Origin: a virus
Lineage: Duplodnaviria; Heunggongvirae; Uroviricota; Caudoviricetes
DNA: 5,372 bases
Virus record (IMG/VR): IMGVR_UViG_2695420646_000013
Direction: 5' to 3' (one strand)
Shown here: positions 2,521 through 4,105 of the stretch, in pieces
How positions within the stretch are numbered: the stretch's first letter is position 1
Layout of the letters: every line of letters begins with the position of its first letter
Translations under genes and position numbers: made by a program
Notes under the pieces: generated by a model
Database searches by the model: none
What the model saw: the letters and a program-made list of their open reading frames with translations, nothing else
Told to the model about the DNA's origin: nothing

Positions 2521-3834
2521 ATGGCAGTAAAGATTTCAGGTGTGCTGAAAGACGGCACAGGAAAACCGGTAGAGAACTGCACCATTCAACTGAAAGCCAG
2601 ACGGACCAGCAGCACGGTGGTGGTGAACACGGTGGCTTCAGAAAACCCGGATGAAGCCGGGCGTTACAGTATGGAGGTGGAGTATGGTCAGCACAGCGTC
2701 ATTCTGTTGGTGGAGGGATTTCCTCCGTCACATGCCGGGACCATCACCGTGTATGAAGATTCTCAACCGGGGACGCTGAATGATTTTCTCGGTGCCATGT
2801 CGGAGGATGACGTCCGGCCGGAGGCACTGCGTCGCTTTGAACAAATGGTGGAAGAGGCAGCGCGTCACGCCGGGGAGGCGAAGAAGAATGCCGGAGAGGC
2901 GGAGACGTCCGCGAGGAATGCCGGCATATCAGCCAGTCAGGCAGAAGAGAGCGCTGCAAATGCTGACACTTCAGCAGGGGAGGCATCGGAGTCAGCCCGG
3001 CAGGCGGCAGAAAGTGCAGCCGCTGCAAAGCAGTCAGAGGAAGCGTCCTCGTCCTCGGCCTCAGAGGCTGCTCAAAAAGCCAGAGAGTCATTACAAAGTG
3101 CAACAGATGCTGAGTTATCAAAAAAGACGGCAGAAAGTGCAGCCGGTAATGCAGCCAGGGATGCAACGACCGCAACAGAAAAAGCCCGGGAGTCAGCAGA
3201 AAGCGCACAGTCAGCGGAACAAAGCAGGATAGCGGCGGAAGAGGCCGTAAACCGAATCCCCACCGTGGTGGGACCTCCCGGGCCAAAGGGGGAACAGGGG
3301 CCCGCGGGTCCTCAGGGGCCGAAGGGTGATAAGGGAGAGCGCGGTGACACCGGCCCTGTCGGGGCAACCGGCGAACGGGGACCGGCAGGTGATGCTGGTC
3401 CGGCAGGCCCGCAGGGGCCGAAAGGTGACAGGGGAGAGCGGGGAGAGACCGGTCTGACGGGAAATGCAGGTCCACAGGGTCCAAAGGGAGATACCGGTGC
3501 GGCAGGCCCGGCAGGCCCACAGGGACCGAAAGGAGAAACAGGTGCGGCTGGCCCGGTGGGGGCAACCGGACCTCAGGGACCGAAGGGCGACCCGGGGGAG
3601 ACACAAATCCGTTTTCGTCTGGGGCCGGCGAGCATTATTGAGACAAACAGCAATGGCTGGTTCCCGGATACAGATGGCGCACTCATCACCGGACTGACCT
3701 TTCTTGACCCCAAAGATGCCACACAGGTTCAGGGGCTGTTTCAGCATTTGCAGGTCAGGTTTGGTGACGGGCCGTGGCAGGATGTTAAGGGGCTGGATGA
3801 AGTGGGCAGTGATACAGGCAGAACAGGAGAATGA
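2521..3834 (+). CDS. stf: Side-tail-fibre-like protein: lambda-Stf-like N-terminal anchor domain, Ala/Ser/Glu-rich shaft, collagen-like Gly-X-Y stalk, short distal domain (437 aa from ATG 2521)
   Basis: N-terminal ~110 aa (MAVKISGVLKDGTGKPV.NCTIQLKA…EAGRYSM.VEYGQ.SVIL.V.GFPPSHAGTITVYEDSQPGTLNDFL…) closely match my recollection of the lambda Stf N-terminus. I prefer ATG 2521 over the track's GTG 2515 because lambda Stf begins MAVKISGVL; GGGGTG lies just upstream. Stop TGA 3832-3834. Much shorter than lambda Stf (774 aa as I recall), so only the anchor is conserved. Confidence 0.85.
   Translation: MAVKISGVLKDGTGKPVENCTIQLKARRTSSTVVVNTVASENPDEAGRYSMEVEYGQHSVILLVEGFPPSHAGTITVYEDSQPGTLNDFLGAMSEDDVRPEALRRFEQMVEEAARHAGEAKKNAGEAETSARNAGISASQAEESAANADTSAGEASESARQAAESAAAAKQSEEASSSSASEAAQKARESLQSATDAELSKKTAESAAGNAARDATTATEKARESAESAQSAEQSRIAAEEAVNRIPTVVGPPGPKGEQGPAGPQGPKGDKGERGDTGPVGATGERGPAGDAGPAGPQGPKGDRGERGETGLTGNAGPQGPKGDTGAAGPAGPQGPKGETGAAGPVGATGPQGPKGDPGETQIRFRLGPASIIETNSNGWFPDTDGALITGLTFLDPKDATQVQGLFQHLQVRFGDGPWQDVKGLDEVGSDTGRTGE
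2851..3250 (+). other. Low-complexity Ala/Ser/Glu/Lys-rich segment inside the fibre CDS (predicted alpha-helical / coiled-coil shaft)
   Basis: Translation EEAARHAGEAKKNAGEAETSARNAGISASQAEESAANADTSAGEASESARQAAESAAAAKQSEEASSSSASEAAQKARESLQSATDAELSKKTAESAAGNAARDATTATEKARESAESAQSAEQSRIAAEEAV shows heptad-like spacing of A/S/E; lambda Stf has a comparable region. Boundaries are approximate. Confidence 0.6.
3271..3603 (+). repeat. Collagen-like Gly-X-Y triplet array (37 consecutive triplets) inside the fibre CDS
   Basis: Read directly in frame: GPP GPK GEQ GPA GPQ GPK GDK GER GDT GPV GAT GER GPA GDA GPA GPQ GPK GDR GER GET GLT GNA GPQ GPK GDT GAA GPA GPQ GPK GET GAA GPV GAT GPQ GPK GDP GET. The unit GPQGPKG(D/E) recurs five times with different synonymous codons each time. 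Confidence 0.9.
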
Positions 3835-3835
3835 C

Positions 3836-4105
3836 ATGAACGTACTAAAAAAACTTATGCAGCGTCTGTGCGGGTACGGAAAGCATGATGACCGTGAACA
3901 CGGGGAGTTACTTACAGCACAACTGCGTCTGGGGCCGGCAGACATCCTGGAGTCAGATGAGAATGGTATTATTCCGGAGCAGGCCAGGGTAATCACGCAG
4001 GTGGTGATACTGGATGCGGATAAAAAGCAGATACAGTGTGTGGTAAGACCGCTGCAAATCCTGCGTGCTGACGGGACGTGGGAAAATATTGGCGGGATGA
4101 AGTAA
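3836..4105 (+). CDS. Small hypothetical protein (89 aa), paralogous over ~57 aa to the C-terminal domain of the upstream fibre; possible fibre-tip accessory protein or remnant 3' end of a displaced fibre gene
   Basis: ATG 3836 preceded by AGGAGA (3824-3829) at 6-nt spacing, 1 nt after the fibre stop; stop TAA 4103-4105. The track's longer ORF from 3704 overlaps the fibre out of frame and lacks an RBS, so start 3836 is preferred. LRLGPADILESDENGIIPEQARVITQVVILDADKKQIQCVVRPLQILRADGTWENI aligns with fibre C-terminus FRLGPASIIETNSNGWFPDTDGALITGLTFLDPKDATQVQGLFQHLQVRFGDGPWQDV at roughly 40% identity by hand alignment. Confidence 0.6.
   Translation: MNVLKKLMQRLCGYGKHDDREHGELLTAQLRLGPADILESDENGIIPEQARVITQVVILDADKKQIQCVVRPLQILRADGTWENIGGMK

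Follow-up and report, generated by a model that had tools for sequence, protein, structure and literature searches.

Introduction

Collagen-containing phage fibres of the EPclA type carry a domain termed PfC (Phage_fiber_C, Pfam family PF06820), which acts as a trimerisation domain, forms a distal knob of about 7 nm, re-nucleates the collagen helix and was identified as a trimer by size-exclusion chromatography coupled to multi-angle laser light scattering (SEC-MALLS) (Ghosh 2012, PMC3368898). In phage Sp5, the open reading frame (ORF) ORF68, encoding 89 amino acids (aa), was characterised as a non-essential late gene for an apparent fibre C-terminus domain, and it was proposed that the gene might serve as a reservoir (Mondal 2016, PMC5155283). 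For phage phi24B, cryo-electron microscopy (cryo-EM) revealed six lateral gp61 fibres, each built of a collagen-like shaft that ends in a small globular domain at the C terminus (bioRxiv 10.64898/2026.04.10.717836). Here, we analyse a stretch of 5,372 nucleotides (nt) from a tailed phage (IMG/VR record IMGVR_UViG_2695420646_000013), called the window in the following. It contains a side tail-fibre gene whose product matches the EPclA architecture (Ghosh 2012, PMC3368898) and, one nucleotide behind the fibre stop codon, an ORF of 89 codons, the small ORF, which encodes a stand-alone paralogue of the fibre's own PfC.

The paralogy as such is already known from Pfam, from names assigned by the Prokaryotic Genome Annotation Pipeline (PGAP), from Mondal 2016 and from a GenBank note. 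An earlier note on this DNA had offered two readings of the small ORF: (a) the 3' remnant of a displaced fibre gene, or (b) a functional tip-like accessory protein. Both are already in the literature or in GenBank notes, as is the idea of a frameshift. What we add is strong purifying selection, the great age of the pair, the missing comparative support for frameshift and reservoir, and a pointer to peptide evidence. We favour reading (b) in the form of a translationally coupled accessory protein of the fibre tip and give this reading as a whole a probability of roughly 60%. To our knowledge, no class of fibre accessory proteins made by duplicating the fibre's own tip domain has been described.

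Results

The similarity between the fibre tip and the small ORF was put on a statistical footing. The earlier note had estimated it by hand at about 40% identity and had allowed that a proper alignment might find it insignificant. BLASTP of fibre residues 366-427 against residues 29-88 of the small ORF gave 23 identical positions out of 62 (37%) and 61% positives, and the similarity was significant (46.6 bits, E=7e-12). Both segments were also recognised by the PF06820 profile with scores far above the gathering cutoff of 25, namely 123 bits for the fibre (residues 365-428) and 119.2 bits for the small ORF (residues 28-89), in each case across the whole 64-position profile. Because both searches were significant, the likeness represents real homology and not chance. 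The location at a fibre C terminus that characterises the family holds for the fibre but not for the stand-alone 89-aa product. In the aligned codons, DNA identity is 56% (0.47, 0.72 and 0.48 by codon position), and a weak likeness reaches up to the last Gly-Glu before PfC (PGETQIRFRLGPA versus HGELLTAQLRLGPA).

An identical 14-nt block, CGTCTGGGGCCGGC, had likewise been reported for both segments. It is indeed present as an exact match in each copy, encodes R-L-G-P-A in both, and occurs exactly twice in the window, with 0 occurrences expected from 200 shuffles. As a general feature of the family it does not hold up: the block is carried by 40 of 78 fibre copies and 22 of 78 small-ORF copies and by both at only 18 of 78 loci, because synonymous changes break it elsewhere. 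Identity over these 14 nt is thus a property of this allele rather than a conserved trait. We therefore rejected the block as a selected recombination site, since both-copy identity is confined to these 18 loci and absent from the diverged pair described below.

To compare the small ORF across phages, we used 82 related loci with enough flanking sequence from IMG/VR and phage records, 78 of them E. coli-type. The small ORF is intact in 76 of these 78 loci and bears none of the marks of a pseudogene (lost start, stops or frameshifts, neutral pattern). The ratio of nonsynonymous to synonymous polymorphism (pN/pS), calculated by the Nei-Gojobori method for 55 distinct small-ORF alleles (synonymous polymorphism pS about 0.12), was 0.11 for the whole ORF, 0.048 for its PfC part (codons 29-89, positions 3920-4102) and 0.36 for the 28-codon leader. 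The fibre PfC was looser, with a pN/pS of 0.23 in 46 alleles. In the PfC part of the small ORF, segregating sites were distributed 4/2/18 over the three codon positions (p=7e-5), and a third-position excess was also found for the whole ORF (p=0.004). The small ORF is very probably an expressed and selected protein-coding gene. Four loci (L022, L053, L073 and L074) additionally carry a decayed third copy of the small-ORF 3' end (about aa 58-89, positions of about 4040-4135), located about 780 nt downstream of the intact small ORF and disrupted by an in-frame TGA and a frameshift. These copies show what a true remnant of the small ORF looks like. They further suggest that insertion or exchange of cargo downstream of the fibre module recombines within the small-ORF 3' end and terminator.

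The age of the duplication was assessed with the most distant stand-alone homologue found, P0128 (79 aa, locus L093, assembly GCA_008387015.1), which comes from a genome other than E. coli and is 58% identical to the small protein. It retains the leader motif M-x-[IV]-[LF]-K-K...L-x-G (MTIFKKIKHCLFGC... versus MNILKKLMQRLCGC...) and directly follows a non-collagen fibre with a diverged PfC, with an overlap of 14 nt and an AGGAGG Shine-Dalgarno sequence; a terminator-like hairpin, read from the sequence and not scanned for, lies behind it. The sequence of this pair had no match in complete E. coli genomes. Across the two lineages, PfC identities were 64% between small proteins, 40% between fibres and 29-39% for cross comparisons, so that both PfC clades predate the split of the lineages. 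The two clades are thus orthologous pairs, and the duplication is old. Nonsynonymous divergence (dN) between the lineages was 0.60 in the fibre PfC but only 0.30 in the small protein, which changes at about half the rate of the tip. This fits a variable, receptor-facing fibre tip with a conserved partner.

These data bear directly on reading (a), according to which the small ORF would be the leftover 3' end of a displaced fibre gene that now drifts neutrally. Fibre 3' ends are exchange cassettes, the block of collagen, PfC and small ORF is common to siphoviral and podoviral fibres, the weak likeness up to the last Gly-Glu fits a fibre 3'-end origin, and real remnants of the small ORF do occur at the four loci with third copies. 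As a description of the present state, however, a remnant is at odds with the low pN/pS, the intactness in 76 of 78 loci, the conserved start codon and Shine-Dalgarno sequence, and a conserved leader that is alien to fibres; an orthologue at 58-64% identity stands beside a different fibre, and the genuine remnants bear a stop and a frameshift that the small ORF does not. The earlier note had suggested looking for fibres that continue in frame into a homologue of the small ORF. A word-indexed protein search gave 169 clusters, whose sources were confined to E. coli, E. albertii and Citrobacter rodentium and of which the 120 listed are all of 131 aa or less, and an exhaustive HMMER search of 1.84 billion representative proteins returned only 60 relatives; no full-length fibre with a small-type PfC was among the matches listed (120 of 169 clusters) or the 60 HMMER matches. 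Peptides of a homologue in virion preparations, described next, also speak against an inert remnant. We consider this alternative hardly tenable, and on comparative grounds it can be set aside, contrary to the earlier expectation that sequence would not decide between the two readings. It remains plausible that the small ORF arose long ago from a fibre 3' end that was duplicated or captured.

Peptide evidence comes from the proteome of gradient-purified phi24B virions, where the supplement lists two peptides unique to the homologue gp59, ADGTWENIGGMK and VITQVVILDADKK (bioRxiv 10.64898/2026.04.10.717836, supplement). The peptide group to which they are assigned there comprises hypothetical fusions, an ORF at 39891-40295 and an entry called 'gp59_start'. 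The small product is therefore made and co-purifies with virions. In the same supplement, the spectral count of the fusion group exceeds that of gp61 only in the low-mass gel slice EA1829, which also holds a 74-aa protein, and this pattern hints at a free small species.

The junction between the two genes is conserved. In line with what the earlier note had described, the small ORF has a strong ribosome-binding site and its own ATG one nucleotide after the fibre stop. The geometry of stop, one nucleotide and ATG was found in 82 of 82 loci, in siphoviral and podoviral phages alike, and the small ORF's own ATG and Shine-Dalgarno sequence are kept in all of them. The junction reads ACAGGAGAATGAC followed by ATG in 75 of the 82 loci, with an AGGAGG variant in 5. 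Nucleotide diversity (pi) was lowest at 3801-3830 (0.002), with further 30-nt windows also low (0.012-0.015); synonymous conservation of the fibre 3' end as a sign of a hidden element was considered and dropped, as it was not distinctive beyond the Shine-Dalgarno sequence. The arrangement is what ordinary translational coupling would be expected to look like. Downstream, the small ORF is followed by an intrinsic-terminator-like hairpin (-25 kcal/mol, z=-4.7, with 0 of 200 shuffles as good) that is conserved across loci, and a second terminator-like hairpin precedes the fibre gene. Because hairpins bound them on both sides, fibre and small ORF form a bicistronic unit. The loci diverge into differing cargo about 45 nt past the small-ORF stop, which places the small ORF and terminator at the edge of exchangeable effector cargo.

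The same junction could be read as a programmed +1 frameshift near the fibre stop, through which the fibre would be extended by the small ORF to give an alternate tip. This is the view taken in the GenBank record of AU6Stx1 (KU977420), where the homologue is named 'atfT', 'alternate tail fiber tip', and a note predicts a +1 frameshift with a slippery site and a pseudoknot. The small ORF does lie in the fibre's +1 frame, which contains no stop over the 46 codons before the ATG in 72 of 76 loci, and the context GAA UGA C recalls the CUU UGA C of prfB. In the phi24B work, fusion entries in the proteomics database share both gp59 peptides. Against a frameshift, there is no slippery codon able to re-pair (GAA to AAU), the last codon is GGA in 5 loci (with the stop followed by T in 4 of them and by C in the fifth), and 3 loci have a stop 13 codons upstream in the +1 frame. 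Over the fibre's last 135 nt, the +1 frame evolves neutrally (pN/pS 1.07) whereas the fibre frame is constrained (0.33). RNA folding of positions 3780-3880 gave z=+0.25, with 118 of 200 shuffles folding as well, and no Rfam element at E<=0.1. The Shine-Dalgarno sequence, which in prfB sits 3 nt upstream, here abuts the P-site codon, and we count this against a frameshift. What the junction has in common with prfB-type +1 frameshifting is thus a UGA stop followed by C, a +1-frame ORF behind it and a neighbouring sequence that resembles a Shine-Dalgarno sequence, whereas a slippery re-pairing codon, the right spacing and coding constraint in the +1 frame are all absent. Mondal et al. also found no frameshift signal (PMC5155283). 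The examined part of the phi24B supplement contains no junction peptide (TGEDMN...), and the fusion group topping the gp61 counts only in the low-mass slice likewise counts against a fusion. Further, because the +1 frame is closed upstream of 3698, a fusion would append a second PfC and not replace the first. Taken together, we regard the frameshift as very improbable and retain the coupled, separate small protein.

The pair is tightly linked wherever it occurs. Of 50,697 phage records, the small ORF is found in 296 and a fibre-type PfC likewise in 296, with nearly all of them having two PfC places. Among 5,426 complete E. coli genomes, the small ORF was found in 698 (6,802 places, median 11 per genome) and the fibre PfC in 697 (6,160 places); roughly 13% of these genomes thus carry the cassette, each with about 10 copies. 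According to the match lists, its hosts include O157:H7, O145 and O55:H7 strains and Shiga toxin (Stx)-converting phages. Three types of shaft precede the pair: the EPclA-type side fibre of lambdoid siphoviruses, lambda h434 imm21 included; the lateral fibre of short-tailed Stx phages such as VT2-Sakai, AU6Stx1 and phi24B; and the non-collagen fibre of L093. An 871-bp cassette (positions 3285-4155) is shared with VT2-Sakai at 94% identity and spans the collagen end, PfC, small ORF and terminator, with homology ending right after the terminator, at 4155. When genome contigs were scanned for distant stand-alone homologues, matches came only from E. albertii and from a contig with the label Xanthomonas pisi DSM 18956. 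The latter (L089, 725 nt) carries the E. coli-type PfC/small-ORF cassette at 93% identity and most likely reflects contamination of that assembly.

Two further groups of relatives were observed. In Citrobacter rodentium (L085-L088, positions 3479-4237), a degraded prophage beside nleG contains a shortened fibre of 161-166 aa in which the N-terminal domain PfN (PF08400) and PfC remain and the collagen is lost. There, the small ORF keeps its original ATG and is frameshifted after codon 7, and the annotation restarts internally (78 aa). P0141, P0147 and P0152, all fibres that contain repeats, were weak matches sharing only a '...LRADGTW...' type motif. Of these, P0147 (565 aa) and P0152 (509 aa) are fibre-like phage proteins with tandem repeats that end like the second half of PfC (…VVVLDAD…GILQVRRADGTW…, …LFHADGTW…), and PfC may be related to a repeat unit of the Phage_fiber_2 type.

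Recombination between the two copies offers another explanation for the small ORF, namely that it is kept mainly as a silent spare tip which is swapped in by deletion. By arithmetic, a crossover between the two 14-nt blocks would remove 310 nt and yield an in-frame fibre with a small-type tip. One natural fusion of collagen to a small-type PfC was found: P0063 (L084, positions 1-360) runs from collagen (…GERGPA) in frame into the small-ORF PfC (DILESDE…), as after a deletion of positions 3389-3930 of the window, and occurs in 2 samples; about 11 nt of microhomology link 3388 to 3931. The L084 contig begins inside the collagen repeats and the fusion lies at the contig edge; it is a rare natural tip swap or possibly an assembly artefact. 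The reverse chimera also exists: P0130 (92 aa) begins with the small-ORF leader and PfC start and continues with the last two-thirds of the fibre PfC and the final 11 residues of the fibre. A silent cassette, however, needs no start codon, Shine-Dalgarno sequence or leader, and all three are conserved and under selection. The diverged pair lacks the block, which is identical in both copies at no more than 18 of 78 loci; a tip swap would be irreversible, and tip-swapped fibres amount to one incomplete contig among the matches listed (169 clusters) and none of the 60 representatives. The small-ORF product is also translated, as the phi24B peptides show. Copy-to-copy recombination does happen, is very rare and is not what maintains the small ORF; a reservoir as its main purpose is quite unlikely.

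The window as a whole corresponds to the right end of a tail module, that of a lambdoid prophage from an attaching and effacing E. coli (Table 1). The fibre is composed of PfN (PF08400, residues 3-135), a coiled coil, collagen Gly-X-Y repeats (PF01391) and the 64-residue C-terminal PfC (PF06820, 365-428). Downstream, the type III effector gene nleB2 is intact and encodes an SseK/NleB arginine glycosyltransferase effector (Pfam E=4.6e-180). The cassette borders the site of type III effector cargo in lambdoid prophages, occupied here by nleB2, and is also found in short-tailed Shiga-toxin phages. On the minus strand, an antisense ORF of 302 aa (3211-4119) runs across the small ORF and the collagen region; it seems to arise merely from the GC-rich Gly-X-Y repeats and is not evidenced as a gene.

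Table 1. Features of the window, numbered from its first nucleotide.
Feature	Position	Strand	Details
J (tip attachment protein)	81-1790		C-terminal 569 residues
lom	1857-2456
Terminator-like hairpin	2483-2504	+	between lom and fibre; 8-bp stem (7 GC pairs) and T-run
Side tail-fibre gene, EPclA-type	2515-3834	+	439 aa; from ORF list; stop TGA 3832-3834
Fibre PfC (Phage_fiber_C), distal trimerising knob	3607-3798	+	residues 365-428; PF06820, 123 bits
14-nt block, fibre copy	3616-3629	+	CGTCTGGGGCCGGC, codons R-L-G-P-A; exact match
Shine-Dalgarno sequence of small ORF	3825-3830	+	AGGAGA; inside last fibre codons, 5 nt before ATG
Coupling junction	3832-3838	+	TGA stop, C (3835), ATG (from 3836)
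Small ORF, stand-alone PfC paralogue	3836-4105	+	89 aa and stop; PF06820; PHROG 576 matched over full length
Small-protein leader	3836-3919	+	aa 1-28; not found in fibres; short helix predicted at 3-12, with a charged linker behind it
Small-protein PfC	3917-4102	+	aa 28-89; PF06820, profile positions 1-64 of 64
14-nt block, small-ORF copy	3926-3939	+	R31-L-G-P-A35; exact match
Intrinsic-terminator-like hairpin	4120-4148	+	CCGGAG-UCCG-GCUCCGG and U-run; closes fibre/small-ORF unit
nleB2, type III effector gene	4282-5262		downstream of hairpin

The cysteines of the small protein were also inspected. Codon 14 (3875-3877) encodes Tyr in this allele and Cys in most, with His and Arg also occurring. 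Cys12 and Cys68 are conserved, residue 14 is not, and the fibre PfC has no Cys. A metal or disulfide site formed by these cysteines was considered and set aside. The consensus 'LCGC' (residues 11-14) was considered as a lipoprotein signal and discarded, given the variable residue 14 and an N-terminus that is short (10 residues) and charged; judged against the PROSITE PS51257 lipobox pattern, with a hydrophobic signal peptide that ends in L-[AS]-[GA]-C and an invariant Cys, it fails.

Discussion

In the reading that we favour, the small ORF would be a long-maintained late gene and the last gene of the prophage tail-fibre module. With a Shine-Dalgarno sequence embedded in the final codons of the fibre gene and an ATG one base past the fibre stop, its translation would be coupled to that of the fibre, and both proteins would thus be made together from the antiterminated late transcript, which would end at the hairpin behind the small ORF. 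The small protein would trimerise via its PfC fold as the fibre PfC does and would contact the distal knob as a dispensable accessory, either as a cap or adaptor at the tip, where it would contribute a conserved surface for binding, or as an assembly aid that raises yield. The individual steps differ in strength. That the small protein acts on or with the fibre tip or virion is about an even proposition. That it is a cap or adaptor rather than an assembly aid is doubtful. Still more tentative is the specific picture of a small-protein trimer that might dock coaxially on the fibre PfC knob as a detachable distal cap or adaptor. Reading (b) of the earlier note, a functional tip-like accessory, be it as chaperone, cap or alternative tip, fits the evidence, with the phi24B peptides adding support.

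Several observations weigh against this reading. Neither recombinant EPclA nor isolated PfC needs the small protein to trimerise (PMC3368898), and deletion of Sp5 ORF68 leaves the phage viable while the fibre gene ORF67 is essential (PMC5155283). On E. coli K-12, an obligatory role of the small protein as chaperone or adhesin is therefore excluded. The C-terminal domain of phi24B gp61 is neither resolved by cryo-EM nor confidently predicted by AlphaFold (bioRxiv 10.64898/2026.04.10.717836). The authors of that work label the gp59 peptide group 'Spike or just gp59?', their main text, Table 1 aside, makes no mention of gp59 or gp60, and the two gp59 peptides could come from a co-purifying soluble protein. 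An AlphaFold2 (AF2) monomer of the small protein, built on a 12-row alignment, is of low confidence (predicted local distance difference test, pLDDT, 52; predicted template modelling score, pTM, 0.30). This model contains a helix at residues 3-12, a disordered linker and five strands; PfC has been reported to be low in helix, and the strands are in keeping with this. No solved structure matched the small protein by sequence (best E=0.22).

Some of these observations would equally suit a role independent of the fibre, in which a free PfC trimer, released by lysis or present in the infected cell, acts as a receptor decoy or blocker or in some other way. The homologue is dispensable for plaque formation and lysogenisation (PMC5155283), the fibre assembles without the small protein (PMC3368898), and the small protein forms a separate, more conserved sequence clade. 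Blocking of the same receptor is unlikely, though, given that the small protein is only 37% identical to the fibre PfC and does not track the fibre's faster evolution. Further, it has no signal peptide or lipobox (residue 14 being C, Y, H or R across alleles), and no promoter-like site for lysogen expression was found in positions 2400-4400. Linkage and coupling to PfC fibres of three shaft types point instead to a fibre-related role, and we consider a fibre-independent one unlikely.

If the cap reading were true, it would provide lambdoid siphoviruses and phi24B/933W-type podoviruses with a conserved second surface, one that would matter on natural, O-antigen-bearing hosts and not on K-12. 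The authors of the phi24B cryo-EM study raise the question of what the lateral fibres do, and a conserved partner of the tip that would be translated together with the fibre is an obvious candidate to consider.

Among known systems, Sp5 (VT2-Sakai) ORF68/ECs1229, phi24B gp59 and AU6Stx1 atfT belong to the same family (90-97% identity, 89 aa), as do the 'tail fiber assembly chaperone' of lambda h434 imm21 and the proteins named 'phage tail fiber C-terminal domain-containing protein' by PGAP (PHROG 576). All of them share the stop, one nucleotide and ATG after a PfC-ending fibre, and the terminator. The copy in the window differs from them in nothing substantive: it follows an EPclA-type fibre past J and lom, precedes nleB2 and has Tyr14. 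Compared with the PfC of EPclA (PF06820, PMC3368898), the small protein has the same core motifs (RLGPA, NG..P, IT, LD, LQ and DG.W) but stands alone, carries a 28-aa leader, forms a slower, separate clade and has a Cys in PfC that fibres lack.

Tfa proteins (lambda Tfa, P2 gpG, Mu U; Caudo_TAP) are similarly encoded by a small gene immediately 3' of the fibre and co-expressed with it. In the lambda map J-lom-stf-tfa, the small ORF sits at the tfa position. By sequence, however, it is not a member of this group (PF06820 being the only Pfam match at E<=0.1, with no NCBIfam hit). Tfa proteins are not paralogues of their fibre's own tip, whereas the small protein is, and, unlike in the Tfa role, the small protein was not required for trimerisation or viability in published tests. 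Neither the fibre nor the small ORF had a Pfam match to an intramolecular chaperone domain of the Peptidase_S74 type. The gp38-type adhesins of T2/T6/S16-like phages are small tip-bound proteins that carry receptor specificity. The small protein may resemble them, by analogy only, as a separate small protein on the distal end of a trimeric fibre; the two share no homology, and gp38 is hypervariable whereas the small protein is highly conserved.

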